Shown: one piece after another, positions 1 through 43,400 of the stretch | How positions within the stretch are numbered: position 1 is the first letter of the stretch | Layout of the letters: each line of letters begins with the position of its first letter | Assembly: GCA_029560465.1 (NCBI GenBank) | Contig: JAKQKX010000045.1 | Coordinates: 152,260 to 216,259, forward strand | Reading direction: 5' to 3' | DNA: 64,000 bases | Source: Candidatus Omnitrophota bacterium | Lineage (GTDB): Bacteria > Omnitrophota > Gorgyraeia > Zapsychrales > JANLHA01 | The notes under the pieces: model-generated | Told to the model about the DNA's origin: nothing | The model's input: the letters and a program-made list of their open reading frames with translations, nothing else | Databases searched by the model: none | Position numbers and translations under genes: made by a program

Positions 1-213
1 TGTGTCGTCCACCCCTCCGGTGTCCAGGAAGACCACCGGGCCGACGGGGATCAACTCCATCACTTTTTCAACAACGTCCGTTGTGGTCCCTGGGATGCTG
101 GACGTTATGGCGACGTCCTGTCCCGCGACCATATTCAGGAAACTGGATTTCCCGACGTTCGTTCGTCCGAACAAGCCTAATTGCAACCTTAACGATTTTG
201 GAGTCCTTGTCAT
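1..213 (-). CDS. hydF: [FeFe]-hydrogenase maturation GTPase HydF, N-terminal fragment (the gene runs off the left edge of the window)
   Basis: The minus-strand frame from ATG at 213 reads MTRTPKSLRLQLGLFGRTNVGKSSFLNMVAGQDVAITSSIPGTTTDVVEKVMELIPVGPVVFLDTGGVDD. This carries the G1 P-loop GxxNVGKSS, the G2 TTD and the G3 DTGG, typical of the HydF/EngA family. It is adjacent to hydA. The ORF track missed it because it is partial and in a different frame from the listed 68..256 ORF. Confidence 0.6.
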   Translation of the reverse strand, partial: MTRTPKSLRLQLGLFGRTNVGKSSFLNMVAGQDVAITSSIPGTTTDVVEKVMELIPVGPVVFLDTGGVDDT

Positions 214-262
214 CTTTCATGTCCTCTCGGATAAAAAACATTATACGCACCGTCAATACGGG

Positions 263-646
263 TTATTTCACATATTTTTCAACGGCTGCCAGAAATTTCT
301 CCGGCTGAATCGGTTTTTCAATCACCGCTTTGACCGGCAACCAGACCTCATCCGGTTCATATTTAAACATCACTCCCGTCTCCTTGCGGATCCCCGTCAC
401 CACAATGACCGGGATATTCCTGGTGGAGGGCTCTTCGTGCAGACGGCGGGAAATATCAAAGCCTTCCGTCTCATGCGTCATCATGACATCCAGAAGGATA
501 AGGTTCGGATTCTCTGTTTTGGCCTTTTGAAAGCCCAATTCACCGTTAATGGCGTGAATCAATGTGTACCCTTTTGTGGCAACAAGGTCGGTCACGGCTT
601 GCGCAAAATCCTGGTCGTCATCAACCATCAATATTTTCTTTGCCAT
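263..646 (-). CDS. Stand-alone CheY-like receiver (REC) domain protein. The start is most likely MAKK at 646, which has an AAGGAGG RBS 6 nt upstream. The listed ORF extends to 661.
   Basis: Acidic pocket DDD, phospho-acceptor D in LILLDVMM, T in VVTGI and K in IEKPI are all present, with no output domain. It is a paralog of the N-terminus of the HydC fusion. The stop of hydA and the ATG at 661 overlap as ATGA. Confidence 0.8.
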   Translation of the reverse strand: MAKKILMVDDDQDFAQAVTDLVATKGYTLIHAINGELGFQKAKTENPNLILLDVMMTHETEGFDISRRLHEEPSTRNIPVIVVTGIRKETGVMFKYEPDEVWLPVKAVIEKPIQPEKFLAAVEKYVK

Positions 647-657
647 TCTGTCCTCCT

Positions 658-2403
658 TCATTTTTTATATTCTGGCCTCGGAATATATTTCGTATGCAGC
701 AGGTGATGCGCCTTTTCGCCCAGAGGCTCTTGCAAAAATTCGGCGTAAAGCTGCTTAATATAAGGATTCTCATGGCTGTAACGCACGCTGCACTGTTCGT
801 CATCATCATACAATCCTTGAGCCCTGGCCGCCCGCACTTCGTCGTTCACGCCATAAGGCTGCCCGCCACCGCCGACGCATCCGCCCGGGCAGGCCATGAC
901 CTCAATAAAATGGTACGGAACCGGTTCGCCCTTCTTTTGCGCCGTACGGACTTTATCTAACACATACTCCACGTTCAACAACCCGTGAGCCACCGCAATT
1001 TTTACCTCGGTGCCATGGATGAAAACCGAAGTTTCCTTCACGCCTTTCAGCCCCCGGACATTGCGGAAATTAACATCCTTAAGATTTTCTTTCGTGATAA
1101 GATAATACGCCGTGCGTAACGCGGCCTCCATCACTCCCCCCGTGGCGCCGAAAATGACCCCGGCCCCGGAATAATCCCCCATCAGATGGTCCGGGTCTTC
1201 CTCCGGGAGCTCATTAAAATCAATCCCCATCTGTTTAATCATACGGATTAATTCCCTCGTCGTCAAGACGATATCCGTATCCTGGAATCCAGAGGCAGAC
1301 ATATCATTGCTGCGGGTGATCTCGTATTTCTTGGCGGTGCAGGGCATGATCGACACCATAAAAATCTTGGCCGGATCTATCCCTGCCTTCTGGGGATAAT
1401 ACGTCTTCGCCAGCGTCCCCATCATGCCCTGGGGCGACTTGGCCGAGGAGAAATGCTCGATCATGTCGGCCTGAAATTTCTCCATAAAATCCACCCAGGA
1501 CGGGCAGCACGTGGTGATAAGAGGCAGCGGCCCTTTTTTATAAAGGAACCGCTCCACAAATTCGCTGGCCTCCTCCATAATGGTGACATCCGCCGAAAAA
1601 TTCGTATCAAAAACCGCCTTAAACCCCATGCGCCGCAGGAGCGCATAAATTTTCCTGGTCAGGTTCGTCCCCGGGGGAAACCCGAACCCTTCTCCAAGGG
1701 CGACCCGCACAGAAGGGGCGATCTGGACAATGCAGATTTTATCAGGATCCTGCAGGGCGTCCCAAACCTGTTTCGTCTGGTCGTGTTCAAAAATCGCGCC
1801 GGTCGGGCAATGTGCGGAGCACTGGCCGCAGCGGACGCAAGGCGAATCACTCAAGCGGATGTCTCCAGCCGGAGCGAAACGGGTGTTCACCCCCCTTTCC
1901 AGGAACGACAGGGCCCAAACGTTCTGGGTCTCCTGGCAGACGCTCACACAACGGCCGCATTTGATACACTTGCTCGGCTCCAGGACAAGCGTCCCCGTGC
2001 TGGTGTCTTTCGGGATATCCCGGATGATCTTGTCAAAAGATTCCTCCCGGATCCCGAAATCCGCCATAATTGTCTGCAACTCACAATTTTTATTGCGGCC
2101 GCAGATCAGGCAGTCGTTCGGATGATTGGATAAAATCATTTCTATGACCGTGCGCCGTACCGCAACGATTTCCGGATCATGGGTGATGATATCCATCCCG
2201 TCTTCAATCGGCGTACAACAGGACCGCAGCATCTTCGCCGTCCCTTTCACTCTGACAATACAGATCCCGCAGGCCGCCGTCGGCTTGATGTCAGGATGGT
2301 AACACAACGTCGGGATCTTCACCTGAATAAGCTTAGCGGCTTCCAGGATCGTCATCCCCGGCTCAAACTCCACAGGGATATTATTAATAACCGCTTTTCC
2401 CAT
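658..2403 (-). CDS. hydA: [FeFe]-hydrogenase catalytic subunit HydA (group A3, bifurcating-type, ~580 aa)
   Basis: N-terminal 2Fe-2S ferredoxin-like Cys (CYHPDIKPTAACGIC) plus 4Fe-4S motifs (CIKCGRCVSVC, CVRCGQCSAHCP). H-cluster motifs L1 TTCCPSW, L2 MPCTAKKYE and L3 EVMACPGGCVGGGGQP are present. Confidence 0.92.
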   Translation of the reverse strand: MGKAVINNIPVEFEPGMTILEAAKLIQVKIPTLCYHPDIKPTAACGICIVRVKGTAKMLRSCCTPIEDGMDIITHDPEIVAVRRTVIEMILSNHPNDCLICGRNKNCELQTIMADFGIREESFDKIIRDIPKDTSTGTLVLEPSKCIKCGRCVSVCQETQNVWALSFLERGVNTRFAPAGDIRLSDSPCVRCGQCSAHCPTGAIFEHDQTKQVWDALQDPDKICIVQIAPSVRVALGEGFGFPPGTNLTRKIYALLRRMGFKAVFDTNFSADVTIMEEASEFVERFLYKKGPLPLITTCCPSWVDFMEKFQADMIEHFSSAKSPQGMMGTLAKTYYPQKAGIDPAKIFMVSIMPCTAKKYEITRSNDMSASGFQDTDIVLTTRELIRMIKQMGIDFNELPEEDPDHLMGDYSGAGVIFGATGGVMEAALRTAYYLITKENLKDVNFRNVRGLKGVKETSVFIHGTEVKIAVAHGLLNVEYVLDKVRTAQKKGEPVPYHFIEVMACPGGCVGGGGQPYGVNDEVRAARAQGLYDDDEQCSVRYSHENPYIKQLYAEFLQEPLGEKAHHLLHTKYIPRPEYKK

Positions 2404-2433
2404 AATGACTCCTTCTACCCGGGATGCCCGGGC

Positions 2434-4242
2434 CTATCGATCAATCGCTTTAAATTTACACACCTCATAACACTGCCCGCAATGGATGCATTTCTCCTGA
2501 TGAATCAAATACGGCTCCTCACGGCTGCCGGTGATCGCCCCAGCGGGGCAATGGCGCAGGCATAACCCGCAGCGCTTGCAACGCTCGCTCACAATGACAT
2601 AATGATAAAGCCCCCGGCATTTACCCGCCGGGCAGGTTTTATCATGCACATGGCGGTCATATTCCTCTTTAAAATACTTCAGCGTGGACAGGACCGGATT
2701 GGCAGCGGTTTGCCCGAGCCCGCACAGCGACGCCTTCTGCATGGCCAGCGAAAGCCGGCGCAACTTCGCGATGTCGTCCTCCTCGGCCTTCCCTTCGGCG
2801 ATCTTCTCAAGGATCCTCAGCATTTGAGTTCCCCCGATCCGGCAGGGGGCGCACTTCCCGCAGGACTCCTCGACGCAAAAACCCAAATAAAATTTGGCGA
2901 TATCGATCATGCAGTCATCTTCGTCCATGACAATCATCCCTCCGGACCCCATAATCGAGCCCAGCTTCTGAAGATTCTCATAATCAACGGGGGTATCAAG
3001 CAGGTGCGCCGGGATGACTCCGCCCGAAGGGCCACCGGTCTGCACCGCTTTGATTTGCTTGTCATTCAAAATCCCTCCCCCGATATCGTAAACGATCTCC
3101 CGGATGGTCATCCCCATGGGCACTTCAATCAGTCCGGTGTTCTTCACTTTCCCGGTCAGGGCAAAGACCTTGGTCCCTTTCGATTTCTCGGTACCGATCG
3201 ACGCAAACCAGCTGCCGCCGTTATGAATAATCGCCGGGATATTCGCCAGCGTTTCAACGTTATTGATCACAGTCGGTTTTCCCCACAACCCTTTAACCGA
3301 CGGATAGGGAGGCCGCGGGACAGGGCAGCCCCGTTTACCTTCGATAGAAGCGATCAGCGCCGTCTCTTCCCCGCAAACAAACGCGCCCGCGCCCAAACGG
3401 ACTTCCAAATTAAAAGAAAAAGACGTCCCGAGGATATTCTGCCCCAGAAACTTCCTGTCCCGTGCCTGCTCGATGGCCTTGCTGATCCGTTTAATCGCCA
3501 GCGGATATTCCGCCCGGATATAAAGGAAACCCTTGGTCGCCCCGACGGTATAACCGGCAATCATCATCCCTTCCAGCACGGAGTGCGGGTCCCCCTCGAG
3601 GACACTGCGGTCCATGTAAGCCCCCGGGTCCCCCTCGTCGCCATTACAGATAATATATTTCTGATCCGCTTCGACTTTTCTGGCGAAATTCCATTTCATC
3701 CAGGTCGGGAACCCCCCGCCGCCCCTTCCCCTCAGGCCGCTGGTTTTCAACTCTTCAACCACGTCCTCCGCCGAATAATCTTTCAACACTTTCTTAAACG
3801 CGGCATAGCCGTCATGATCAATATAATCGTCAATATTTTCGGGATCAATCACCCCGCAGTTCCGAAGCACGATCCGCACCTGCTTGGGGGAGACTTCCAT
3901 GACATACTTCTTAAGGGCCTCATGCGAGGGATTCGCCTCCACGATGTGCTTCTGCAAGATTTCAAGCGCAATAGACGGAGTCACCCCCCCGTACAAAATC
4001 CGGGGCCCCCCGGGAGAGGAGACCTCCATCAAAGGTTCGGCATAACACATCCCGGCACAACCGCACTGCGTCAGGGAAACTTCGAGCCCTTGCGCCGCGA
4101 TCTCTTTTTCTAAAGCCTTAAAAACATCTCTGGCTCCGGCGGCAATTCCGCAGGAGCTCAGGCCGACCGCGATTTTGTTTATTTTTTTGTTCTTTGCGGC
4201 ATTCGAGTCCGCTGAACGGACAGAAAATTTCATAAACTTCAC
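2434..4242 (-). CDS. hydB: NuoF-like NAD(P)H/FMN subunit HydB of a multimeric [FeFe]-hydrogenase
   Basis: N-terminal thioredoxin-like 2Fe-2S (SSCGIAAG...CGCAGMC). NuoF core: GRGGGGFPT, NGDEGDPGAY, ESCGKCAPCR. Two C-terminal 4Fe-4S ferredoxin motifs (CKRCGLCLRHCP, CIHCGQCYEVC). Confidence 0.9.
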   Translation of the reverse strand: MKFMKFSVRSADSNAAKNKKINKIAVGLSSCGIAAGARDVFKALEKEIAAQGLEVSLTQCGCAGMCYAEPLMEVSSPGGPRILYGGVTPSIALEILQKHIVEANPSHEALKKYVMEVSPKQVRIVLRNCGVIDPENIDDYIDHDGYAAFKKVLKDYSAEDVVEELKTSGLRGRGGGGFPTWMKWNFARKVEADQKYIICNGDEGDPGAYMDRSVLEGDPHSVLEGMMIAGYTVGATKGFLYIRAEYPLAIKRISKAIEQARDRKFLGQNILGTSFSFNLEVRLGAGAFVCGEETALIASIEGKRGCPVPRPPYPSVKGLWGKPTVINNVETLANIPAIIHNGGSWFASIGTEKSKGTKVFALTGKVKNTGLIEVPMGMTIREIVYDIGGGILNDKQIKAVQTGGPSGGVIPAHLLDTPVDYENLQKLGSIMGSGGMIVMDEDDCMIDIAKFYLGFCVEESCGKCAPCRIGGTQMLRILEKIAEGKAEEDDIAKLRRLSLAMQKASLCGLGQTAANPVLSTLKYFKEEYDRHVHDKTCPAGKCRGLYHYVIVSERCKRCGLCLRHCPAGAITGSREEPYLIHQEKCIHCGQCYEVCKFKAIDR

Positions 4243-4263
4243 CTTTCTGCTGGGGTATCAGCC

Positions 4264-5118
4264 TTATTCATATTGTGATAGAATGTCAACAATATCCTTC
4301 TTATTGACCTTCCCGTATATTTTGTCATCAATCATCATGACGGGAGAAAGGCCACAGCACCCTAAGCACCGGACGGGTTGAATGAAAAAAAGCCCGTCCG
4401 GCGTGGTTTCGCCCTCATTCACATGCAGGAACTCCTTCAGTTCCTGAAGGAGTTCCGCCCCGCCTTTCAAATAACAGGCCGTTCCAATACACACGGAAAT
4501 CAAATGTTTTCCAGGCGGCGTCAATTTAAAATAATTATAAAAAGTGATCACTTCATAGATACGGGCCAACGGGATGTCCAGGATGCGGCTCAACTCAAAC
4601 GACACTTCCCGGGGTATGTAGCCGTGGATGTTCTGAATTTCATGCAGGATCATAATCAGGTTGCCGTCCATGCCCTTCCATTTGGAAGCGATGTCAGCAA
4701 TTCCGCCGACAAATTGGCGATGCTCCTCTCCGGAACGACGGATAAACATCTGCACGACTTTGAGCAGACGTTCTGGAGTCACCGGTTTTTCCAACACCAT
4801 CTTCACAGGCAGCGCCTGCTCATCCGGCTTGAGTTCAACGGGGAAACTTTTGTCCCGCTTCGCCCCGGTAATCATAACCACCGGGATATCCTGAACCGCC
4901 GCGTCCAGGGCGAACGCCTTGGCGGTTTCCGCTCCTTCCGTCTCATACGTCATCATCATGTCCAGCAGGACCAAATCCGGAGAGACGTCTTTCACCTTTT
5001 GAAAACCTTCCAGGCCATTCGTTGCGGAGAGCACCTCGTAACCGCTCGCTTCCAGCAGGAGTGTGGTCGCCTCAAGAAAATCCTGGTCATCGTCAATAAG
5101 CAAAATTTTGTTTTTCAT
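4264..5118 (-). CDS. hydC: HydC-like NuoE-type [2Fe-2S] subunit with an N-terminal CheY-like receiver domain (REC::NuoE fusion)
   Basis: Residues 1-120 form a REC (DDD, LVLLDMMM, VMITGA, LEKP). Residues ~150-284 are a NuoE/24 kDa thioredoxin-like fold with 2Fe-2S ligands (SVCIGTAC ... RCLGCCG). Gene order C-B-A is as in hydCBA operons. Confidence 0.85.
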   Translation of the reverse strand: MKNKILLIDDDQDFLEATTLLLEASGYEVLSATNGLEGFQKVKDVSPDLVLLDMMMTYETEGAETAKAFALDAAVQDIPVVMITGAKRDKSFPVELKPDEQALPVKMVLEKPVTPERLLKVVQMFIRRSGEEHRQFVGGIADIASKWKGMDGNLIMILHEIQNIHGYIPREVSFELSRILDIPLARIYEVITFYNYFKLTPPGKHLISVCIGTACYLKGGAELLQELKEFLHVNEGETTPDGLFFIQPVRCLGCCGLSPVMMIDDKIYGKVNKKDIVDILSQYE

Positions 5119-5142
5119 AACAAACCTCTTCTATGGTTATTT

Positions 5143-6978
5143 TTATGCTGAGGGAATCGTAAATCGGAACTGGTTCCCTTCCAACCCCGGCTCAACGGTT
5201 AATGTCCCGCCGTGCCGCAGAATGATCTCTTTCGTAATAAAAAGGCCGATCCCTGTCCCCTTCACTTTTTCCATTCCCCGGTAAACCACGCGCGAAAATT
5301 TTTTAAACAACTTTTGCCTGTCGACTTCCGCGATCGGCATCCCGTCATTGTAAACGGTAACTTCCACACCGTTATCGACGGCGTGCGCCCGGACACGGAT
5401 TTCTCCGTTTTCCTTGCCGTACTTCACCGCGTTGCTCAAGAGGTTGTTAACAACAATCTGCATGAGGCCGGGATCCGCGTGAATCATAAGATCCTGGGGA
5501 ACGTCGCAAGAGATCCTCATCTTCTTTTCGTCCGCCTGCTGGGTGAACGTGTCGACCGCGCTTTCCAGGACATGCTCTTTAAGCAGGATATCCTGTTTAT
5601 CGATCGTCATTTCATCCTTCTCGATACGGCTGAGGTTCAAAAAATTCTTGACCGTGATCGCGAGATAATCCAAGTTCCGGGCCATGGACTTCAAAACCCG
5701 GCTTTGTCTTTCGTTCACCGGCCCCAGGATGCCTTTCTGCAACAAATAGGTATTCAGGACGATCGAGGACAGGATCCCCTTCAGTTCATGCGACACAAAG
5801 CCGATCAGGTCCAGATAACGCTTGTTCAGCACAGCCAACTTGTCATTGGTTTCCGCCAGGGTCTGCTCCCGCTCCGAAAGTTTTTCAATCATGTCGTCAA
5901 AGGCCAGAGTTAACGTCTTGACTTCTTTAATATTAGAGTCGGCCGGGACCAGGGTTTTCATGTCTCCCTGTGCGATTTTTTTGCTCTTCTCCGCCAAGGC
6001 GGTCAAAGGCCGGATCATAACATTCGTCAATAAAAACGAAACCCCCAACGTGGGCAAAGCCGTCAAAAGGATGATGGTCAAGAGGCTCAAAAACATCCTG
6101 TTTTGAACCGCGACAAACGGCTTTTCCAGGATCCCGACGTAAAGAATCCCGATAATCTTCCCCCGGATATCTTTGATCGGCTCATAGGCCGTCAAGTACC
6201 AGTCGGTGACCACAAAGGCCCGGTCACTCCAGGTCTTCTTCTGTTCCACGACTTTATGATACACTTCCTCGGAAACTTGCGTGCCGATCGCCCGGCGCCC
6301 ATCATCGTCCAGGACATTCGTCGCCACGCGGATATCACCCTGAAAGATAGTGACGGTTCCAACCGGTTTGCCTTCGTATAATTCCCGGTCAAAGACCGCA
6401 TTGTTGATCCGGTCAATCAAGGCAAAATTTTTATTGATGATCCAACCGCCGCACAGGACTTTATCGATCCGCCCTTGGTGATCCAAAAACGGCCGGGCAT
6501 ACTCAAGCCCTAGCGCCGTGTCCAAAACCTTGACATCAGATTTACGGGCCTTGGGGGTGATCTGTCGGACCTTGATCGTGAAATCCTGGGGCTGCTCTTT
6601 TAATTCCGCGGAAGACAACACCCGGGTCCCCCCAAACGTGCGGCCCTCCTGAAACGCGGCCTGGACGATTTCGCTAGGAAAAGTTTGGGCCCGGTCGCGG
6701 TCAATCCAGTACAGATAATCTAAATGTAAACTGTTTTTTAAAGCCTGAATATCGTCATCCCTTTCAATCAGGGTAAACGTCAGGGCGATTGATTTCAGAT
6801 AATCCTCATAAACACTCCGGACCGTTTTTAATTTCTGCTGCACTTCCTTTTGCGCTTCATCAACGACAGCCGTCTTAAGCACAAAAAAACTGTACAGGGA
6901 CATGCAAACGCCCCAAAAAATGATCAACGCCAGTAAAAGCAGGACAATATACGTTCGCAGACGGATAACGGCCTTCAT
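5143..6978 (-). CDS. Sensor histidine kinase: TM - extracytoplasmic Cache-like sensor (~260 aa) - TM - HAMP - HisKA - HATPase_c
   Basis: TM1 at aa 10-33 and TM2 at ~297-320. Cache-type segment with DWYLTAYEP and GILYVGI. H-box GFVSHELKG. N-box LLSNAVKYG. G1 VYNDGMPI. G2 GTGIGLFI. The start ATG overlaps the rex stop as ATGA. Confidence 0.85.
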   Translation of the reverse strand: MKAVIRLRTYIVLLLLALIIFWGVCMSLYSFFVLKTAVVDEAQKEVQQKLKTVRSVYEDYLKSIALTFTLIERDDDIQALKNSLHLDYLYWIDRDRAQTFPSEIVQAAFQEGRTFGGTRVLSSAELKEQPQDFTIKVRQITPKARKSDVKVLDTALGLEYARPFLDHQGRIDKVLCGGWIINKNFALIDRINNAVFDRELYEGKPVGTVTIFQGDIRVATNVLDDDGRRAIGTQVSEEVYHKVVEQKKTWSDRAFVVTDWYLTAYEPIKDIRGKIIGILYVGILEKPFVAVQNRMFLSLLTIILLTALPTLGVSFLLTNVMIRPLTALAEKSKKIAQGDMKTLVPADSNIKEVKTLTLAFDDMIEKLSEREQTLAETNDKLAVLNKRYLDLIGFVSHELKGILSSIVLNTYLLQKGILGPVNERQSRVLKSMARNLDYLAITVKNFLNLSRIEKDEMTIDKQDILLKEHVLESAVDTFTQQADEKKMRISCDVPQDLMIHADPGLMQIVVNNLLSNAVKYGKENGEIRVRAHAVDNGVEVTVYNDGMPIAEVDRQKLFKKFSRVVYRGMEKVKGTGIGLFITKEIILRHGGTLTVEPGLEGNQFRFTIPSA

Positions 6979-7631
6979 GCTTTGCCCCCCCGATTATTCA
7001 GGGCATTAACAAAATACAACAGGAATTCCAGTTCAACCCCTAAATTCACGTCATGGATAACGCATGACCGTTGAGCCATAAGATGAACCGGGGCAAAATT
7101 CAACACGCCTTCAACCCCTCCCCGGACCATAACGTCCAAAACCAGTTGTGCCGCGTCAGCCGGAACCGCAAGGATGCCCACTTTAATATTGCGGTTGGAA
7201 ATATAGCCCTCGCATTCTGAGAATGGATAAACCGGGATATTCCCCTGAACACCGCATTTCACGGGATCAATGTCAAACCCCGCTCTTATACAGATCCCCT
7301 CTTTTTCAAACCCTTTATAATTGCTGAGGGCAATCCCCAAGTGTCCCATGCCGGCTATTATAACATCCTGACCGGGTTGGGAACCGAGAATTCTCTGAAT
7401 TATACCCAAAAGATCAGAGACACTATAACCGCCTCTTTTGTTCCCCATGATGCCAAATAACGAAAAATCCTTCCGCACTTGCGCGGCCGTAATCCCGATC
7501 GCGTCTGCCAGTTCATTAGAGTAAACCCGGTCAGAACCGGAAGCTAAAACTTTCTTAAGCACATATTTATATTGCACCAACCGAGGGATACTATTTTTAT
7601 TAACTCCTGCGATCTTCTGAGGCAAATTCAT
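6975..7631 (-). CDS. rex: Redox-sensing transcriptional repressor Rex (NADH/NAD+ sensor)
   Basis: Winged-helix N-terminus with AAQVRKDFSLFG, a Rossmann fold GMGHLGIAL, and C-terminal LNFAPV...VELEFLLYF. Collinear with the B. subtilis/Thermus Rex family. It is the first gene of the hydrogenase transcription unit. Confidence 0.85.
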   Translation of the reverse strand: MNLPQKIAGVNKNSIPRLVQYKYVLKKVLASGSDRVYSNELADAIGITAAQVRKDFSLFGIMGNKRGGYSVSDLLGIIQRILGSQPGQDVIIAGMGHLGIALSNYKGFEKEGICIRAGFDIDPVKCGVQGNIPVYPFSECEGYISNRNIKVGILAVPADAAQLVLDVMVRGGVEGVLNFAPVHLMAQRSCVIHDVNLGVELEFLLYFVNALNNRGGKA

Positions 7632-7646
7632 TTTCTTGGCCCCTTT

Positions 7647-7664
7647 TTGTGAAAACTATCACAT
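7647..7664. promoter_or_regulatory. Candidate Rex operator (ROP) TTGTGAAAACTATCACAT in the rex 5' leader
   Basis: Matches the Rex consensus TTGTGAA-n4-TTCACAA at 12 of 14 specified positions. It lies 16 bp upstream of the rex ATG (7631), between the upstream terminator and the rex RBS AAGGGG. Confidence 0.45.
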
Positions 7665-7704
7665 AAAAAGAAAAAAAAGAAACCGATTTATGACATATCG
7701 GTTT
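7665..7704 (-). terminator. Rho-independent terminator of the upstream PAS-LuxR gene (hairpin flanked by T-runs on both strands)
   Basis: Perfect 8-bp inverted repeat AAACCGAT-n9-ATCGGTTT (7680-7704). On the minus strand it is followed by TCTTTTTTTTCTTTTT, and on the plus strand by TTTTTAT. Confidence 0.6.
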
Positions 7705-7804: not shown

Positions 7805-8725
7805 TCACAACCGTTGCAAAAACGACGTTAAATTAATTTTTTGATGGGACAGACCCAGCTTGCGCCGGATATTTTTCCGGTGCATTTCTATGGTGTTAAA
7901 CGACAGTCCCAACAACCCGGCCATTTCTTTCCCGCTCAAGCCGCTTTTAATCATATGACAAATCTCAATTTCCCGGGTCGTCAACCCATATCCAGGACAG
8001 GACAATTTCCTGCCAAAAGCCGACGTCATCTGTTCAAGAGCTTGCTGAAGAAGAATAAGATTTTTTTCTGATTTATTTTTGAGTTTTATCTTTTTAACCA
8101 TGGGTAATAAAACATGCTGGACATTCCCCATCACGTTTTCCTGGATCTTTCTTTTTTCCGTCTCGACCTGTTCCAGGATATCCTGCAAATCCACGTTCTT
8201 CTGTTCCAAAGCCGCCTTCTGCTTCCCAAGGCGCTGTTCCGACTCTTTTAACGCCGCTTCCACCTTTTTAATATCTGTGACATCCCGGATAATTTCAATC
8301 GCCCCGACAACCTGTCCACCGGGGTCACGCAAAAGACTGGCTCGTCCCCAAATGAACACGTTTTTCCCCTTCAGGCGGGCAGTCGTGGTCTCCGCTTCCA
8401 GGGCGTCTATCGTCTTCTTCGTAATCCGATAACGCTGCGCAACTTCTTCTTGCCCCTCCAGGAGAAGATCAATGAGAATCGGGCGGCGCTGGCCGTAGAA
8501 AGGAAGCGCGTATTCATAGCGCCCTTTCCCCAGGATCGCTGCCCGGGGCACCCCGGTTAACCGTTCCATTTCCCGATTCCAGGCGACCACGATTTTCTCC
8601 CGGTCAATAACAAAACAGGAATCCGGAAGACAATCCACAAAATTAGAGAATGGCCCGGAAAAATCCTGAAAGGCTTCCGGACACGGGGACTTCCGTTTCG
8701 ACTTTTTAAGCATCGGCTTAAGCAT
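7805..8725 (-). CDS. PAS-domain / coiled-coil / LuxR-type HTH transcriptional regulator
   Basis: N-terminal PAS-like region, central coiled coil (EAALKESEQRLGKQKAALEQKNVDLQDILEQ) and a C-terminal GerE/LuxR HTH (LTTREIEICHMIKSGLSGKEMAGLLGLSFNTIEMHRKNIRRKLG). Confidence 0.8.
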   Translation of the reverse strand: MLKPMLKKSKRKSPCPEAFQDFSGPFSNFVDCLPDSCFVIDREKIVVAWNREMERLTGVPRAAILGKGRYEYALPFYGQRRPILIDLLLEGQEEVAQRYRITKKTIDALEAETTTARLKGKNVFIWGRASLLRDPGGQVVGAIEIIRDVTDIKKVEAALKESEQRLGKQKAALEQKNVDLQDILEQVETEKRKIQENVMGNVQHVLLPMVKKIKLKNKSEKNLILLQQALEQMTSAFGRKLSCPGYGLTTREIEICHMIKSGLSGKEMAGLLGLSFNTIEMHRKNIRRKLGLSHQKINLTSFLQRL

Positions 8726-8743: not shown

Positions 8744-9751
8744 TTACGGCAAGGCGGTTTTGTGAGAATCTTGAATATTATATAAAGCGTTAAAAAGCAA
8801 GACATCAACATATGTCTGCAATAACGCCTGGGCGGTTTCGTCCTCCAGCAGGCCCTTCGCCTTATCACGATAATATTGGCGGATATCCTGGAATGAAGCC
8901 CCTCCGCCAGAGGGGAAAGCCTCCTGTATTCGGCTCATATCGTCTTTGAGCTGATGAAGTGTCCCTTGGGGGATGCCCATCGGCTCGCAATAAATTTCAA
9001 CCCAACGAAAATACTCCGCCAAAGGCTGCCGCACGCCTTCAGTATCCCCCTCTTTAATCGCCCGGAGGATCCTTTCGCTTAAAACAAACGCGTGCCCCTG
9101 GTAGCCTGTCTTGACCATGTCTTCGTAGGTTTCCTGTTCCCCGGGAGACATCCCCTCTCCCTTGCGCAATAACTGCAGCCCCTGATAAAACTCCCCTTTC
9201 TGCATCAAATCTGACGATTCTTTGAAAGCCTGCGCGTAGGGGCTGCTGTCTGCTCGGGACATGTCCCGGAGCCTGCCAAGCTGAGTGAGTCCAGTCACCT
9301 TTGTCATCGTCAGCCAGTTAAAAACCCCGACCACAACCGCCAAAGACACCATCATAGGGAACCCGAGCCGCCGGGTCGCGGCGGGATGCCATAGGACGTG
9401 TTTCATCCGCATCCCCTCCAATATTTTTTTATGAATGGTGTAGATTTTAAAAAACACAAAAATATTCAAGCCCGGGAAAAACATCAACACCGTCCATAGA
9501 CCCGGCGACAGCGCCGTGTTCCCGCTCTTGTAAAAACCGGCGGTCAACTGATGGGCATAGAAAAGCAGGTTGAAAAGGATGAACACAAAAAATACGGCGA
9601 CAACCGGGCGTTCCGATGGGCTGAACCCCCGCACGATGGAAAAAATCACGAGTCCCGCGGCAAAGACAGCATATAAAAAAAAGGCTTTAAGGAAATCCCC
9701 CCATATTTTAATATAATTATCTTTATCAAACGTCGTGGTATTATTGATCAT
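8744..9751 (-). CDS. Hypothetical membrane protein (about 4 N-terminal TM helices plus a ~200-aa soluble domain)
   Basis: Long ORF with consistent codon usage and hydrophobic N-terminal segments. The 19-bp gap to the PAS-LuxR gene suggests co-transcription. No motif recognised. Confidence 0.55.
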   Translation of the reverse strand: MINNTTTFDKDNYIKIWGDFLKAFFLYAVFAAGLVIFSIVRGFSPSERPVVAVFFVFILFNLLFYAHQLTAGFYKSGNTALSPGLWTVLMFFPGLNIFVFFKIYTIHKKILEGMRMKHVLWHPAATRRLGFPMMVSLAVVVGVFNWLTMTKVTGLTQLGRLRDMSRADSSPYAQAFKESSDLMQKGEFYQGLQLLRKGEGMSPGEQETYEDMVKTGYQGHAFVLSERILRAIKEGDTEGVRQPLAEYFRWVEIYCEPMGIPQGTLHQLKDDMSRIQEAFPSGGGASFQDIRQYYRDKAKGLLEDETAQALLQTYVDVLLFNALYNIQDSHKTALP

Positions 9752-12530: not shown

Positions 12531-12839
12531 ACCCTCTGGGCGCGCTTCCGCCCCCCTATAACCCGCCCTCTCCTTTTAACGCCATAATTTAATCAAGCAA
12601 GTGTATCACAGAGTTGTCTCATTTTGAATCAGTATTTTCCAGAATCAGGGAAATGCTCTTTTAAATCACGGTTCTGGGCCCCCGGCTCCATATCCCCCCA
12701 GGTAATAAGCATAACATATAGCACCCTTAACCCCCAATGGCCTCTTTTAAAAAATATTTAACCTGAAAATTATTGCCGAAACTCCCCGGGAAACTTATAA
12801 TAAAAAATTATATAATTTTATCTTATTTTAAATCTTTAT

Positions 12840-14414
12840 ATGCAAATAAAAATAAAACATCTGAATTCCCCGCTGCCCTTTTCAGCAGAAATATTCAAAG
12901 AGTTCCTATTCCCTCTTATCCTGGCCGCTTTAATGCTGTTTCACGGCCTGTCCCTCATAAGCAAAGGCCCCTACCATGTAGACTGTCTCGGGTTAACCGT
13001 GGCCGCCGAAAAATCGCTGGAGACCCACAAACTTCATTTTAACGCCGGACACGGATATCCGCTCATACTGTTCCTCAGCATAATTTTTATCAGCATAGCC
13101 AACGTTTTTAATGTCGCGGATCCGGTTACCGCTGTTAACTTTATGAACGTCTTTTTCAGCTCAATCAGCGTCATTCCCTTCTTCTTCTTCCTTAAAAACT
13201 TGTTTAACGCCAAGACCGCTATCCTGGCATCCCTGTTGTTATGCATTAACCCGCTCTTCCTATCCACGTCTATTTACGGCAACAGCCATTCTCCTTTTTT
13301 ATTTTTCATGTTCGCCTCCCTTGGGCTGCTCACGATTTTCTTCAAATCCCATTCGACGAAGCACCTGGCCTTAAGCGCCCTCTTTTTCGGCTTATCCGGG
13401 GCCGCCCGAATCCAGGACATGGCCGCCATGATTATCCCGATGAGCTTTCTTTATGTCCTTCTGGCCCACCATTCGCCGATGAGCGTCCCGCGCAAGAAAA
13501 CGACATTTTTCTCGAAGCGCTTTCTTCTGGCTGTCCTCCTGGCCCTGCTCACCCTAACGCTCTTTTATGCCGCGGTCTTCACGAGCCGAGGGGTGAATTA
13601 TTTTAATAAAGGGTTCTTTCAATACCGCCTGCTGGACCCTTTCGCAGGATTGATCTCTGAATATCTAAAAATAAGTTTCGATTATCTTATTTCCAATTTC
13701 TCCTACTTGGGCCTCCTGGTTGTTATCGGGGGATTGATTATCCTGGCTTTTGAAAGCCGGCAAAAATTCTGGTTCCTGCTGCTCTGGTTTACAATCCCCT
13801 TCTTAGCTTTCGGCAATTCATTCTTCATTACCCCCCGCTTTCTCTTAACGAGCTTTGTCGCCCTTGTCATCAGCCAGGGATATCTGTTTTCAAAACTAAT
13901 CTCGAACCGCTCAAAACCCGTTGATATCTGCGGGAAAGTCCTGTTCATTCTCGTAGTCATATTGTCTTATCACAATATTTATCCGACGCTGTCTTTCCGG
14001 CACCGCCATGACCTTCTGCCGGAATACGGCCGTTGGATAGCCCGCGTCACGGAGCCAAACGCCAAAATCATCGTGGGCGACGAAAGGGCGTTCATTCAAT
14101 ACTACGGGAACAGGGAGACCATCCATCAAATTGTCACCGACACGACATATTACCAACAACAGGAATCTTTACGGGAAGAACTGCGGGCTTATAAAAAAAA
14201 CCTGGACGCCCTGCTGGACAGCGGGGTCCCGGTCTATATCACGGAAAACGGCCTCTTAAGCAACAATGTCGGGCTCTTTTATTTCTTTATCACGAAATAC
14301 TATAATCTGAGGTACCAGGGGGAAGCGCCCTTCGAAGTATGGCATCGTCGGTGCCTCAAACATCTGGTCATCCGGATCAAACTCTACCGTCTCACCCCAA
14401 AACCGACCTCATAA
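12840..14414 (+). CDS. Polytopic membrane protein, putative GT-C-type glycosyltransferase
   Basis: More than 10 TM helices over the first ~370 aa, then a ~150-aa soluble C-terminal domain. This architecture resembles its neighbours. It is the only long plus-strand gene in this block. Confidence 0.45.
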   Translation: MQIKIKHLNSPLPFSAEIFKEFLFPLILAALMLFHGLSLISKGPYHVDCLGLTVAAEKSLETHKLHFNAGHGYPLILFLSIIFISIANVFNVADPVTAVNFMNVFFSSISVIPFFFFLKNLFNAKTAILASLLLCINPLFLSTSIYGNSHSPFLFFMFASLGLLTIFFKSHSTKHLALSALFFGLSGAARIQDMAAMIIPMSFLYVLLAHHSPMSVPRKKTTFFSKRFLLAVLLALLTLTLFYAAVFTSRGVNYFNKGFFQYRLLDPFAGLISEYLKISFDYLISNFSYLGLLVVIGGLIILAFESRQKFWFLLLWFTIPFLAFGNSFFITPRFLLTSFVALVISQGYLFSKLISNRSKPVDICGKVLFILVVILSYHNIYPTLSFRHRHDLLPEYGRWIARVTEPNAKIIVGDERAFIQYYGNRETIHQIVTDTTYYQQQESLREELRAYKKNLDALLDSGVPVYITENGLLSNNVGLFYFFITKYYNLRYQGEAPFEVWHRRCLKHLVIRIKLYRLTPKPTS

Positions 14415-37413: not shown

Positions 37414-40400
37414 TTAATTATAATTCAACAAGCTCAACTGATCTTTATCATCAAAGAAAAACTGAACGCCTGTTTTTTCCGATGGCTGGGGTTGACGTTT
37501 CTGTCTCTCTTCCTCAACCGGGACCCTGTGACCGCCCTGCGCCGGGGCTTCCCCCAAGTTTCTGCCCAGCAACATCGGCAGGTTCGGGATAGGCGTAATA
37601 TTGATAATGACCGGCACAAATCCGTCAATATTCATATCCCCAACAGGCTGTTGCGGCAGAGGCAGCGGGATGCCTTTATTATCCCGTTTGATCTGCAGGT
37701 TTAACAGAGCCGGGTTCAAATTGATACCGCCGAGGGGCGATGATTGCGCTTCCAGCTGGCCATTCAGGCGCTGCGCGAAATTCAGGACACCTCCGGCCGA
37801 AACACCCCTGGCCCGTCTTTCCGACCGGAGCAGCTGATTGAGCTGCCGGCCAGCGGTATTTCTCTCGATCGAGCCATTGACAAATCCGTCCAGCAACTCC
37901 CTGGTGGCGCGGTTCTGCAGTTGGAACTTGCCCATGGTTTTTTCCACGACCTGGACCGGAGAAGACACATCTTCTTCTGCGGCAAGGTCCGTTTCCGCCA
38001 ACGGGCCTGCCGTGAGTTCTATCTGCGCCATCGTGTCCATAACCTGCTGCAGGCGCAAAGCTTCTTCGGCCGGGGTGGTTTTCCCAAGCTCTTGTTCAAG
38101 CGCGAAATCCGAAAGAATCGCCCCAACTTCCTCTATAATACCGGCCGCTTCCTTGCGGATCTGCTCTAAAACAACCCGGTCTTCCACCGCTTCAGTTTCC
38201 ACCCTCTGGAGGACCGCTTCGACTTCATTCAAAAGGACATTCAATTTCTCCTTATTTTCCGCGGTCAATTGCAACGGAGATGATTGAGAAACCGTGACCA
38301 AATCCACCAGAGGCATCCTTTCCGCCCGCCCGGCCCCCAGCATCGTCATCTGCAAATCAAGGTCATTATCAATGGATAACGCGACGGAACTGTTGAACAC
38401 CGCGGCGGCCATCTTCAAAATCTGGTCCGCCTTTGCCTTGTCAATCCCATCGATCTCGGTCAATTTATTTTCCGCCTGGTCAAACTGACCGGCCCTCTCC
38501 AGGTCAATGGCCTCTTTTAACGCCCGGTACGAAACGGCGTCAAACAGGCCGTAACCGGCCGCCAAACTGGCGGGCAGCAACCGGAACATGGCGTCTTCTA
38601 TCGGGTAAGCCCCGTCCTGCCATTTAATGCCTATAATCCTGGCCGCCGGCCTTAACGGCGGCATGGCCTCCGGATATTTCAACTGATTGGCCAGCAAAAC
38701 CGTGATCGCCGAATAGGCCCAGGCGTCCTGAAGTCCATAAACTTCCCGGTCAACGGCCAGGACATCCCCGATCAGGTCCAGATCTTCCGTGTCCAGAGTA
38801 ATGCTCTGCAGAACCGGAGAAGATGAAGACAACTGGTCTTTTAAAGCGGCAATCGTGTCGAAATTAAACGGCTTTTCAACCACTTCAAGGAAAAGCCCGC
38901 TCTTCAACCCCGAGCCCTCGTCAACGACGGATAACCGCGCCATCTCCCGGCTGTCCCCAGTCATCAGCACGACCGGCACATCACGCTCGGAACGGATCGT
39001 CCGGGCCATCTGTTCCCCGTTCATCACCGGCATTTGCAGGTCAGTCACAACCAGGCCTATATCCGGATTCTCCCGGAACAGACTCAAACCCTCTTCCCCG
39101 TTGGCCGCGGTGATGATTTCCGCTTCGGTGAAGATATCACCCAACTCGTCCCGCAGCAACAACCTCATGCCGTCGTTGTCATCGACAACAAGAATTTTAT
39201 TAAGAGGAGAAGAAGCCAACCTGCCTTTTAAATCAATGACCGTCTTCAACTGATACGGCTTCTGAATGACTTCGGTGAAAATCCCGCTTTTCAGCCCCGA
39301 GGCCTCGTCCACTTTAGACAGCCGCTCCACTTCACTGTAGTTCCCGGATACCAGGACGACCGGAATATCACGCTCAGAACGGATCGTCCGGGCCATCTGT
39401 TCCCCGTTCATTGCCGGCATTTCAAGATCGGTAACCACGAGATCTATATCCGGATTCTCCCGGAACGTCCTCAACCCCTCTTCGCCGTTCACGGCTGTTA
39501 TAACTTCCGCCCCGGAGAAAATAGTACTAAAAACATCCTTGGTCAAATTTCTCACCTCTTCCGTGTCATCCACGACAAGGATCTTTTTGATGACAGGAGA
39601 AGAGAGAAGCGTGGCTCTGACGAGTTCCGGGATCACCCCCAACTCGGCGGCCACCGCCTCCGGCTCAAGCGACTGGCCCTGCTGACTGCGGGCCTCATAA
39701 TACTCCTTCACCACCGCAGGCGGCACCACCCGCCCGCCCATCAGCAAATCCCTCATCCTTTCCTGGTCCTGACCCCGGATCGGCAGAGGGTTTTCAATTG
39801 CCAACTCCACCAAATCCCGTGCTTGGGCAAAAATCAAACCCCGCACTTTATGCAACCAAACGGCAATGACGGCCACTTGTGACTGATAGACAATTTGCTG
39901 CACCACAAAGTTATCAAACGTCGTCAATCCCAACCCGTTTAACGTGCGCAATTTTTCTCGAATCTGTCCCAAGGCCTCTTCACGGAACGCGTCACCCCGC
40001 ACAGTAATATCACCCAAGCCCCCGGATGTTATTTCAATCAGCTCTTCCGCCTTTGCTTCCTGCTGAGCGCGCAATTCATCCGTCTCATACCCCCACATTT
40101 TAAACGCGTTCGCCACCTGCAAAGACACCCATGGCACCTTCCAGAACTGCCCGCGCTTGCGCACATCGGTGGATGAGGTGTCCATCGGCTGGGTGATGGT
40201 TGACAAGCCCAGCCTTGGTAATCCTCGCGCGTTCAACTCCCCTGCCAGCTTCGCCTCATACGCTTGAAGGAGCGTTTCATCAACCTCTTCACCGACACGC
40301 TGGCTAAAAATAATATTCATTTTCTGAATATCCTTGCGCGCCTGAAACCCTCTTAAGCCCTGCTCTCCGGCCGTCATTTTGTTGAGGAGTTTACGCGGCA

Positions 40401-43400
40401 CATCCGGAGCGAATAACGCCTGATACACAACCCTCCGGGCGTCTTCCGTTTCCAGCCCTGTCCCTTCCAGGTCGCTTAACAATAATTCTTCCGGCTTCCC
40501 TTCCTCTAAATAAGCGCTAAACTTCCCGCTCACCGGCTTGCCTTTCTCGGTATCCAGGTATCCACGTTCCTTTAACCGGTCCACCAGGGCCTGAAACGCG
40601 CTCTCCACCGGCTGCCCTTCCGCGTTAATATATCCCGCGTCAGCAAACATTTGCTGAATCCGCTGGCGCTCCACCGCGTTTTCGATCCCCGCGATCGTGC
40701 TCATAAAATCCGCTTCCGTGATCGCCACTTTCTTTAAGGCATAAAGGTTCGCGTGGTCTGATCCCGCGCCGTAAAACAGATTCATCGGCTGGTTCGCGTT
40801 AAGTTCCGCGAGATAAAAAATTACCGTTTCCCCATCCGCGGAAAACAAGTCCAGCATTTCTTTGGGAAGTGTGGTGTACTGCACAAACGGCTTTAAATAC
40901 TTCTCAAAAATCACCCATGTAAACGCCTCCCGGATCGACAGCGAACTTAAATCCGGTTTCCGGGTCGGGTCGCTGTTGTCGATCATAATCACGACCTTGT
41001 CAATCTTATTCTTAATGATCGCTTCCAGGATCATCCAGATGTGCCCGGATTGCCACGGGTCGCCTTTCATGGGCCAAAACAAGACATTCGGAACCGTCCG
41101 CTCTCCTGTCAGCTTTATCGGGGTCCCCTCCGGCTCTTCCATGGACACCCGCACATTCACCTGTTCCGGGAATATCTCCCGGGCCTTGACCAGCTGCGCA
41201 ACCTGGGCCAACTGATCGGCAAACACCGCGTACGTGTCGTCATTCAGCTCCTGCAGGATCCGCTCTTCCGACACGCCCGTGGTTTCCGCTAAAAACGGCA
41301 CCAGCGACATCATCGTGTCATACGACTGCCCGAAATTGCGCGCCAAGTCCCCCACGACTTCGTCAGTCGACAGCTGTGCAAACTGCTGCGAAACCGGCGA
41401 GGACGGACGAACGACCACCTGGCCCCGCTCCCGCACGATTCTTTCCAAAGCGGTGAAAACATCCAACTGCGGCCAGCGTGAAGGAAAAGTTATCGGTTCC
41501 GCTTTCAGGGTCGCCCTGTCATAGCGGTCCGTTTCTGAAGCCGACAAAGACGCGATCAGAACATCAGCCATGACTCTGGCGTTGGATTTCCTGTTAAATT
41601 CATATTGTGTCCGGGAATGTTCAACAAAGGCCCGGGTTTCGTCGCTCAACTCGGGGAAATAATGCTCGCCGATTTCTTTTAAGGTACGCCCTCCCTGCAC
41701 CATACGGGAAATATCCGCGTTGAGCCTTGACAGAAATGCCGCGGCCTGCGCCTCGGTCACCCCGCCTCTTCCCTGCGACCCCACCACATATCCGAGGTAA
41801 TGACGAACCCGCAACTCCGCGTACTGCTGGCCGAAGGGGCTGAGATCCTGGAACCGGATCGTGCCGGCCGCGATCGGAGACGATAAAGCCGCCTGATCCA
41901 GGAGGGCAAGGTCCGCTTTGTTTAATTTCTCTAAAAGCGCGTCTTCGGCTTTCATTAACGCCTCGGCCAGCCGGAAGCTGTAACTTTCCTCGACGATCTC
42001 ATTGGCCACATCCACTAAAGCCGTCAACTGGGCCCCAATTTTTCCTGCGATATCAGCCGGCAAAGCGTTCCGGCTGGCCCAAAAAAGCACCCCCAGGATC
42101 TTGTTCTCCCGGGCCAGTGCGCTCTCGGCGACTGCACGGTTCGCATCCGCGTAAGAAGATCTGTCGCCGTAATTAAGAGCAACACGTTGAAACTCCTCAA
42201 TATTATCCTGGTACAATTTCAAAATTTCCGGAGACACCACCACCGGCGAAGCCACCACATCCGGGGCTTCAATATCCGCAGCCGTCACAACACTCTTCGC
42301 CGCCAATGTCGCTGAGGGGTTTTCCGCCAGGATCGCCGATACCTGAACCACAGGGCTGGAAATGTTCAAGCCCTGATCTACCCTCGCCCGTAAAGGAGAT
42401 GACAGCGGGATATCCTCAAGGTCCACTGCCCGGACCGCGCTTGACATGGCAGACGCATCAAACCCGCCGGAGAAATATTTACGCGGGATGACCTGTTTCG
42501 TCGACATGTCGTAATCTTCCCGGATATAGTTATAGACCCCCTTCCGGAAAGCCTCTAAATACTGGTCATAAATCTTCTGTTTAACCTCCCGGTCATCAAC
42601 ATCAACCCCTTTAATCTTTCCTTTATTCACATACACCTGGCCGAGCAGGGTCGCCCGCAAATTCTGTTTATACCAGGTCGCTAAAATCATGGAATTGTAG
42701 ATCTGCCGGAGCTTGGCGAAATTTTTTCCTTCATTCACCTCTTTTTCAATCTCCGGCAGGAGGATTTCCCGGACGACATCCGAAGAAACTTTACTTAAAG
42801 TTTTAACATAATCTTCCGTGATCTTGGTCGTGCCGAGTTTCTGGTTATCCAGATTTTTCTCCAAGGCAAGGTAATCTTCTTCCAGCATCACCTTCAAATG
42901 GCTGTCCACGACAAAAGCGCTGCCGTTATGTTCCACGACCAAAGCGTCTTGAGGCACGATCCACACTTTATTAAAGGTGTTGATCGGAATATTGGTTGTG
43001 CCGTATTCCTTGGCCGCGCGGTCGTACACTCTTTGCCAAAATTCCTGACCCAAATCCTGTTCCGGATAAATCAACGACGCGACAAGCTGTTTGAGCATAT
43101 AATCCTGGGCCAGGAGGTCACGGCCCATTTCCGTGAACCCGAACCCTTCGGGGATAATCCGGTCGCTTTCATACGGAGAGAGGTTCACCCACAAATCTTC
43201 TTCAGGGATCGTCAACGTCGCCAGGAAATATTTAATAAGCTTATTAGACTCTTCTTCCAGGTCCTTCCCGGTCAATTCGTCCTTGCCGGAATCAATAATA
43301 AAATCGAATTTCAAAGGGTTTTCTGGGTCGATCTTAATGCCTTTCAGGCATGCTGGCGTGTACACATCGCTTTTCAGCACCATTGACCCGGGCATCGGCA

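Follow-up and report, generated by a model that had tools for sequence, protein, structure and literature searches.

How the rate and the direction of electron-bifurcating enzymes are controlled is an open question, and it is posed again by a stretch of 64,000 nucleotides from a Candidatus Omnitrophota bacterium (contig JAKQKX010000045.1, in the following called the window), in which the operon of a predicted electron-bifurcating [FeFe]-hydrogenase contains, next to the gene for the repressor Rex, a complete sensor histidine kinase and a receiver domain (REC) that is fused to the electron-transfer subunit HydC. The regulation known so far for [FeFe]-hydrogenases is either transcriptional, by Rex, or proceeds via sensory paralogues of the HydS type. 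With moderate confidence, we propose that the present operon is controlled at two levels, by Rex acting on transcription and by the kinase and the HydC receiver acting post-translationally on the enzyme.

All coordinates are given as positions in the window, and the operon is read on the minus strand of 1-7664. In the 5' to 3' direction it comprises a Rex operator, rex, the gene of a kinase with Cache and HAMP domains, hydC (a REC::NuoE fusion), hydB, hydA, a free receiver and the start of hydF, with neighboring genes overlapping or separated by 21-49 nt. This order, from rex to hydF, had been read from the sequence in a first-pass annotation, and it has been confirmed with Pfam and NCBIfam for six genes on the minus strand at the positions assigned there. 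The catalytic subunit HydA (658-2403, 581 aa; translation, Pfam, NCBIfam) has been judged by its N-terminal Fe-S domains and by the three H-cluster motifs, L1 TSCCPxW, L2 MPCxxKxxE and L3 ExMxCxxGCxxGGGQP, which are found intact in the translation as TTCCPSW, MPCTAKKYE and MACPGGCVGGGGQP / EVMACPGGCVGGGGQP, respectively. The protein is matched by Fe_hyd_lg_C and Fe_hyd_SSU in Pfam, passes the NCBIfam model NF040763 'NADH-dependent [FeFe] hydrogenase, group A6' with 796.9 bits against a cutoff of 765, and finds its best matches in the PDB in the bifurcating HydA of A. woodii and T. kivui. HydB (2434-4242, 602 aa) has been identified by Pfam as the NuoF-like FMN/NADH subunit of the Bfu type, with an N-terminal [2Fe-2S] and a C-terminal 2x[4Fe-4S] part (domains Complex1_51K, SLBB, NADH_4Fe-4S and two Fer4), and over residues 23-601 it can be aligned with the Bfu-type B subunits 9bov_B, 8oh5_B, 7t2r_B and 7q4v_B. 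HydA and HydB alike align along their entire length with the bifurcating enzymes that have been solved from A. woodii, T. kivui and T. maritima, as well as with others of the Bfu type.

The third subunit, HydC (4264-5118, 284 aa), combines a Response_reg domain (residues 5-122) with a 2Fe-2S_thioredx domain (residues 142-283; Pfam). Its NuoE-like thioredoxin-fold [2Fe-2S] domain (4264-4701, residues 140-284) is matched by PF01257 at 3.5e-46, and among solved structures it is closest to the C subunits of bifurcating enzymes, namely 7t2r (1e-40), 8a6t (3.5e-35), 7q4v and 7p5h. The four cluster cysteines C210, C215, C251 and C255 are invariant in the family. The operon ends in the window with the 5' part of hydF (1-213), the gene of the [FeFe]-hydrogenase maturation GTPase, whose translation begins with MTRTPKSLRLQLGLFGRTNVGKSSF and is cut by the window end; full-length HydF orthologues lie at the equivalent place in the related loci L003, L004, L006 and L010, and that of L082 shows the HydF_dimer and HydF_tetramer domains of Pfam. 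The same subunit domain sets and cofactor motifs are found in the bifurcating HydABC enzymes of T. maritima (7P5H), A. woodii (7Q4V) and T. kivui (8A6T), which belong to HydDB group A3 (Bfu), and with the defining features of HydA, HydB and HydC all present, the operon is, as read from its sequence, that of a HydABC-type electron-bifurcating or confurcating [FeFe]-hydrogenase.

What sets this hydrogenase apart is the N-terminus of HydC. In the solved HydABC structures HydC begins ~10-35 residues before the NuoE fold, whereas here a receiver of ~125 residues and a linker precede it. The receiver (4744-5118, residues 1-125; Pfam and AlphaFold2, AF2) possesses the acidic pocket D9-D11, the phospho-acceptor D53, T84 and K111, and in an alignment of the window HydC with 120 homologues (n = 121) the acidic pocket, D53, T84 and K111 are kept in 109-121 of the sequences. 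As all catalytic residues are present, we have ruled out that the window receiver is a pseudo-receiver, a description that applies to a minority of its relatives. The receivers of this family are further marked by two motifs of their own, DMMM[TS]YKTEG and LPVK..EKP, and the AF2 model of HydC (predicted local distance difference test, pLDDT, 84.6) shows the receiver helix alpha4 replaced by a conserved loop that contains LPVK, and alpha5 continuing as a helix into the N-terminal bundle of NuoE. A fold search with the whole HydC model has returned separate NuoE-like and receiver-like matches only and no solved fusion.

A second receiver, REC2, is encoded as a free-standing single-domain protein at 263-661 (D14-16, D58, T89, K116; Pfam). 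Its true start is probably the ATG at 646 behind the Shine-Dalgarno sequence AAGGAGG, which would give 127 aa as in the orthologues. REC2 is 43% identical to the HydC receiver and has the special motifs in common with it, and it is best classified, from these likenesses, as a paralogue from the same hydrogenase-linked receiver subfamily. Neither HydC nor REC2 contains a DNA-binding helix-turn-helix (HTH) domain according to Pfam. REC2 has to be regarded as a variable accessory, being present in ~6 of 18 fusion loci and absent from most; in the closest genome relative (L001, 92% HydC identity) hydA is followed, instead of by REC2 and hydF, by a radical-SAM gene (12659-13759), which is probably the maturase hydE.

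Is the fusion a peculiarity of one genome, and does it go together with the kinase? In a search of 5.8 billion proteins, all of the best 120 clusters at 90% identity carry both PF00072 and PF01257, and those that are named come mostly from Candidatus Omnitrophota. Among 79 genome loci that have been compared, the order rex, kinase, REC::NuoE, hydB, hydA, optional receiver and hydF recurs at 61-92% HydC identity. The kinase family has been found in 15 of the 18 loci with the fusion vs 2 of the 61 with a plain NuoE (Fisher 2e-11, uncorrected for phylogeny), and in 15 Omnitrophota loci REC::NuoE directly follows the kinase gene. Receiver and NuoE are also seen in split form, where a receiver gene of the same subfamily stands immediately upstream of NuoE (L011, L019, L017, L031, L046, L049); in the L017 group two such receiver-NuoE units are separated by hydG and hydE. 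In a phylogenetic tree the hydrogenase-linked receivers form one clade apart from CheY-like receivers, within which fused and free forms are sister groups. In addition, the phospho-acceptor site is mutated in seven fusion variants, and none of these has a kinase directly upstream (D53E in L013 and L082, D53N in L080 and L086, D53H in L083, a degenerate site in L018 and D53Y in the distant L087), whereas all 15 kinase-bearing fusion loci retain D53. The link between kinase and HydC receiver, which the first-pass annotation had assumed, is hence supported by comparative sequence evidence of three kinds, namely co-occurrence, the fused and split forms, and the loss of the acceptor site only where no kinase lies directly upstream.

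Three of the related loci hold a further arrangement. In L011 (1-4328), L019 (1906-5900) and L012 (1-3200) the kinase gene is immediately preceded by a second [FeFe]-hydrogenase cluster, which consists of a free receiver (~123 aa), a NuoE (~159 aa), a short NuoF (~400 aa) and a 640-aa HydA. The short NuoF is without the extra Fe-S domains and hence probably non-bifurcating. These loci have two receiver-linked hydrogenases in tandem around a single kinase.

Regarding the input of the system, the sensor histidine kinase (5143-6978, 611 aa; sCache_3_3, HAMP, HisKA and HATPase_c in Pfam), whose gene shares its first 4 bp with the end of rex, is laid out as a first transmembrane helix (TM1), a bimodular Cache sensor (residues ~35-295), a second transmembrane helix (TM2), HAMP, HisKA and HATPase_c. 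The sensor matches Pfam sCache_3_3 at 5.6e-34 over profile positions 3-104 of 107, and an AF2 model of residues 1-340 (pLDDT 94) shows TM1 with a long helix, two alpha/beta modules and TM2 with HAMP, an architecture that is dCache-like. A single-Cache reading derived from the Pfam label has been ruled out by the two modules of the model, and the term dCache used in the first-pass annotation is structurally defensible, although it is not the Pfam assignment. The window kinase and 17 orthologues share the catalytic motifs FVSHELKG, NNLLSNAVKY and KGTGIGL, and the H-box HELKG (5779-5793, residues 396-400), which is the same in all but one or two of these 17, is without the T/N phosphatase residue at H+4.

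The conserved part of the sensor is the module adjacent to TM2, while the extra module before it is poorly conserved. Compared by sequence with the PDB, the TM2-adjacent module matches only the formate-bound sCache domains 8PY0 and 8PY1, which also match in fold. In the formate sensors the ligand is held by a salt bridge to Arg and by hydrogen bonds from Thr and Tyr, and a Phe limits the pocket size (PMC11804620). The corresponding residues of the window kinase are T208 (R6 T100), R217 (R6 R111 / PacF R142), T220 (PacF T145), T233 (PacF T158), Y265 (R6 Y160) and Y280 (R6 F175, the size-limiting Phe), and all six are invariant in a 54-sequence family alignment. Compared with the formate-binding Cache sensors PacF and Atu0526 (8PY0, 8PY1; PMC11804620), the kinase keeps the Arg, Thr and Tyr contacts at identical spacing; it differs in being a histidine kinase where the known proteins are chemoreceptors, in the Tyr at the place of the pocket Phe and in the poorly conserved module placed first, and formate binding is a prediction. 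Our best guess for the ligand is, tentatively, formate or a similarly small carboxylate.

From these parts the following sequence of events can be proposed. Rex would bind its TGTGA-N6-TCACA operator overlapping the promoter and let go when NADH/NAD+ rises. The conserved Cache module of the membrane kinase would sense a small periplasmic ligand, most likely the carboxylate named above, upon which the kinase would autophosphorylate on H397 and pass the phosphoryl group to D53 of the HydC N-terminal receiver, predicted to be exposed to the membrane kinase. HydC and HydB would form the peripheral NADH/FMN lobe, with the HydC [2Fe-2S] cluster beside the mobile domains thought to gate bifurcation, and the phosphorylated receiver may alter NADH-side electron flow or activity, coupling, bridge-domain movement, oligomerisation or assembly. 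REC2 would probably act on the same complex non-covalently or serve as a phosphate sink, the latter role being suggested by the lack of a T/N phosphatase residue in the kinase H-box. The position of the receiver can be compared with the HydABC structure of T. maritima, in which HydB and HydC build the peripheral lobes and the HydC cluster lies 12 Å from the HydB [2Fe-2S], beside the mobile bridge domains; its authors consider the HydC cluster likely important for bifurcation (PMC9499530). We infer, with good support, that the hydrogenase would be under post-translational control.

The transcriptional level of the scheme is the more familiar one. Rex (6975-7631, 218 aa), the NADH/NAD+-sensing repressor encoded by the first gene of the operon, shows the Pfam domains PF06971 (Put_DNA-bind_N) and PF02629 (CoA_binding) and passes the NCBIfam equivalog NF003996 with 206.6 bits against a cutoff of 138. 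At 7648-7663, 17 nt upstream of the rex ATG, a perfect operator-like palindrome TGTGA-N6-TCACA (TGTGAAAACTATCACA; no strand) has been found, which is the sole match within the window and probably overlaps the -10 region of the promoter; operators of the Rex regulon are of the type TTGTGA-N6-TCACAA. Among the closely related loci that bear the fusion, most have a Rex-type box 7-72 nt before the first gene of the operon, and many of the other related loci have one at a distance of up to ~130 nt; the boxes precede whichever gene of the cluster comes first, be it rex, the kinase gene or hydC. In an intergenic alignment with L001, L016 and L002 the box is the best-conserved stretch. The assumption of the first-pass annotation that Rex sets transcription is in line with this conservation. 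Rex control of HydABC-type hydrogenase operons is well known, and autoregulation by Rex, for which the sequence gives support, would be the ordinary and already known part of the finding.

A hairpin with a T-run at 7665-7704 (minus strand; 8 bp stem, RNA fold z = -3.2), conserved in L001 and L016, probably represents the terminator of the next gene upstream, and since this terminator lies immediately upstream of the Rex box, the hyd transcription unit can be placed to start there. The upstream gene (7805-8725, minus strand) encodes a one-component regulator with a PAS domain and a GerE HTH of the NarL type, without a receiver (Pfam), in short PAS-LuxR. It is syntenic in L001, L002, L004, L006 and L007 and fragmented in L016, and its product might also control the hyd operon and in that case belong to the system. 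Adjoining it, at 8744-9751 on the minus strand, lies the gene of a 335-aa predicted membrane protein that has no Pfam match; the two genes are neighbors in L001 and L016, too.

Several observations weigh against two-level control in the form proposed here. The co-occurrence of kinase and fusion leaves shared ancestry uncorrected, and in the AF2 model of HydC the relative orientation of REC and NuoE is uncertain (predicted template modeling score, pTM, 0.61). On the sensor side, the Phe that limits the pocket at its bottom (R6 F175) is replaced by the invariant Tyr280, and the formate-like module is the TM2-adjacent one and not the distal one; because of this exchange and the different module order the formate call is a tentative one. 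An intact fused receiver occurs without an adjacent kinase in L015, and receivers of the REC2 type occur in clusters without a kinase (L017 group, L063). Finally, one distantly related locus, L088, places a kinase of the same family beside an NtrC-type regulator, which demonstrates that kinases of this family can be paired with a DNA-binding regulator, and an unlinked partner of this kind, and with it a branched pathway, is possible in the window organism.

The receivers in loci without a kinase imply that other phosphodonors must exist, possibly acetyl phosphate. They can also be taken to mean that the fused receiver is a structural or assembly module in the manner of a pseudo-receiver, or is charged by acetyl phosphate, and that the kinase serves something else. 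Such an interpretation would account for the ~10-15% of the family that have lost D53 or other catalytic residues and yet retain the receiver domain, as well as for L015 and the L017-type clusters, and it recalls the receiver subunit of mycobacterial complex I, in which the Asp is buried (PMC10068793). We nevertheless consider it improbable, as all phospho-acceptor residues are present in the window HydC and in ~90% of the family, a strong association with the kinase is seen, and degeneration is confined to loci without a kinase directly upstream.

The continuity of receiver alpha5 with the N-terminal bundle of NuoE in the AF2 model can be read in the opposite direction as well, with the redox state of the HydC [2Fe-2S] cluster or of FMN altering the (de)phosphorylation of the receiver that HydC itself carries. 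In this case the hydrogenase would serve to sense the redox state, and the diffusible output would be provided by REC2 or by another partner. In agreement with such reverse signaling, a free paralogous receiver is co-encoded, and the NuoE-type cluster is not on the principal route of the electrons, a regulatory or storage function having been proposed for it (PMC9499530). A target of REC2 is not evident, however, REC2 is missing from most fusion loci, and the extracytoplasmic sensor kinase in the operon makes forward signaling the simpler assumption, so that reverse signaling has, in our view, only a slim chance of being correct.

The likeliest alternative to direct control of the enzyme is a branched and mainly transcriptional pathway, in which an unlinked DNA-binding regulator, for instance of the NtrC type, would be the chief phosphorylation target of the kinase, and the HydC receiver and REC2 would be sinks, insulators or means of fine-tuning. 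It draws on L088, where a sCache_3_3 kinase, an NtrC-type REC-sigma54-HTH regulator, a REC-REC protein, REC::NuoE and a NuoF/HdrA-like complex are encoded in a row. The L088 kinase belongs to the family of the window kinase and has identical ligand-site residues, its H-box being HEINN, and by its place beside REC::NuoE it strengthens at the same time the link between this kinase family and the fusion. L088 has been considered as a hydrogenase locus and rejected, since the match of its 588-aa protein to HydA is limited to the Fe-S part and the protein resembles HdrA. Two further points in favor of the transcriptional branch are the name 'NtrC family sensor kinase', which IMG gives to homologues of the kinase, and the HELKG box lacking the T/N phosphatase residue, which favors sink receivers.

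In the window, on the other hand, neither the operon nor the remainder of the 64 kb encodes an NtrC-type or other DNA-binding response regulator, and a sigma54 promoter (TGGCAC-N5-TTGC) is found upstream of none of rex, the kinase gene and hydC; the same promoter search in L088 has given a weak candidate only. In the 15 Omnitrophota loci, moreover, kinase and REC::NuoE stand in direct succession, and the loss of D53 along with the kinase would be unexpected for a bystander receiver. A mainly transcriptional pathway is for these reasons unlikely, albeit worth keeping in mind. The statement of the first-pass annotation that no DNA-binding response regulator accompanies the kinase holds for the operon, where neither receiver has an HTH, and does not hold as a general rule, as L088 illustrates. 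The only other receiver-containing open reading frame (ORF) of the window, a 2058-aa ORF at 37414-43590 on the minus strand, has two receiver-like stretches (residues ~1333-1428 and ~1464-1551) and is probably a giant multidomain signaling protein.

Beyond the Omnitrophota, an exhaustive HMMER search has yielded at least 12 further REC::NuoE representatives at 32-41% identity, confirmed by Pfam, in Thermodesulfovibrionales, Dissulfurispiraceae and one Pseudomonadota genome. Several of their receivers are canonical and some are pseudo-receivers. The distant fusions are accompanied by a NuoF-like subunit and a molybdopterin formate dehydrogenase in L087, L090 and L091, and by Hdr-type modules in L089. 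The architecture to which the first-pass annotation had drawn attention has been found to characterize a conserved hydrogenase family, mostly of the Omnitrophota, and it is not unique to hydrogenases; from its presence in formate-dehydrogenase and Hdr-type loci it follows that the receiver is a recurrent add-on of the Bfu-type NADH module and not hydrogenase-specific. In L091 (8001-9737) a 578-aa protein with the tandem arrangement REC-NuoE-REC-NuoE stands beside the NuoF-like subunit and the formate dehydrogenase, and NfnAB-like genes and the genes of three REC-AraC regulators come before it. In L087 (4526-5795, Dissulfurispiraceae) a PHP-domain gene and small genes with HATPase_c only are found near the formate-dehydrogenase cluster with the D53Y pseudo-receiver fusion. 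Small 'histidine-kinase-like ATPase' genes are known from the hyd operons of Firmicutes, and the genes of L087 recall them.

This distribution invites a wider proposal, which we put forward as speculative and would not ourselves expect to hold in full. The NADH-input module (NuoE/NuoF-like) of flavin-based bifurcating enzymes may be a recurrent direct target of His-Asp phosphorelays, in the hydrogenases of Omnitrophota as well as in the formate dehydrogenases and Hdr-type complexes of Nitrospirota and other phyla, and extracellular formate, acting via the Cache kinase, may switch the activity or coupling of the hydrogenase within seconds through HydC phosphorylation and independent of transcription, whereby the disposal of electrons as formate and as H2 would be coordinated.

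How does two-level control of this kind relate to known systems? In comparison with the solved HydABC enzymes, the window operon additionally includes a complete sensor kinase and a free receiver. The sensory hydrogenases of the HydS type (group C) are likewise regulatory modules genetically linked to bifurcating hydrogenase operons; they employ PAS domains and a Ser/Thr kinase/phosphatase, whereas the window system is predicted to use extracytoplasmic sensing by Cache, His-Asp chemistry and an enzyme subunit as the target. No HydS, PAS-hydrogenase, Ser/Thr kinase or phosphatase partners are encoded in or beside the hyd operon according to Pfam and the translations, and the distinction from HydS systems that had been drawn at first pass is thereby upheld. 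Direct control of a protein or enzyme by receiver phosphorylation is also exerted by CheY, CheB, PleD, RssB and CpdR. To our knowledge, a redox metalloenzyme complex that is controlled via its electron-transfer subunit is not among their targets.

By analogy, the closest precedent is provided by MSMEG_2064 / Rv3143, an orphan receiver and genuine subunit of the mycobacterial respiratory complex I (PMC10068793, PMC9274095). MSMEG_2064 is free-standing, encoded 5' of nuoA and bound to NuoB, NuoA, NuoC and NuoI near the membrane arm, and this receiver subunit has been described as unique to mycobacteria (PMC10068793). Common to both cases is a receiver without output domain in the operon of a complex-I-type NADH enzyme, which in MSMEG_2064 acts by protein-protein contact and not by DNA binding. 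In contrast to MSMEG_2064, for which no kinase is known, the window receiver is fused to the NuoE homologue, belongs to a soluble hydrogen-metabolising enzyme and has a kinase encoded alongside, so that the mycobacterial protein is likened to it as a functional analogue only. In the searchable literature on receivers or response regulators with NuoE, HydABC, bifurcating hydrogenases or Omnitrophota, no description of REC::NuoE has been found, which agrees with the earlier impression that the wiring had not been described; PMC11406978 and a Myxococcota preprint have been considered as precedents and set aside as irrelevant. The automatic IMG name of the fusion, 'NADH:ubiquinone oxidoreductase subunit E/CheY-like chemotaxis protein', shows only that it is visible in databases. 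The window system is best placed as a variant of two known themes, two-component systems with an output other than DNA binding and receivers as subunits of complex-I-type enzymes.

For the organism, the arrangement suggests that the hydrogenase enzyme itself, and not its genes alone, is switched by a chemical signal from outside, possibly formate. The receiver in HydC with the kinase alongside represents a putative post-translational switch that can be tested directly, at a position that is thought to matter for bifurcation, and the system would supply what the receiver subunit of mycobacterial complex I is without, namely an identified kinase and a candidate ligand. With this fusion also present in the formate-dehydrogenase and Hdr-type complexes of further phyla, control of this kind may be a general principle in anaerobes. 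Should formate prove to be the ligand, H2 and formate, the two main carriers of electrons between species, would be connected by the system in an uncultured phylum of wide distribution.

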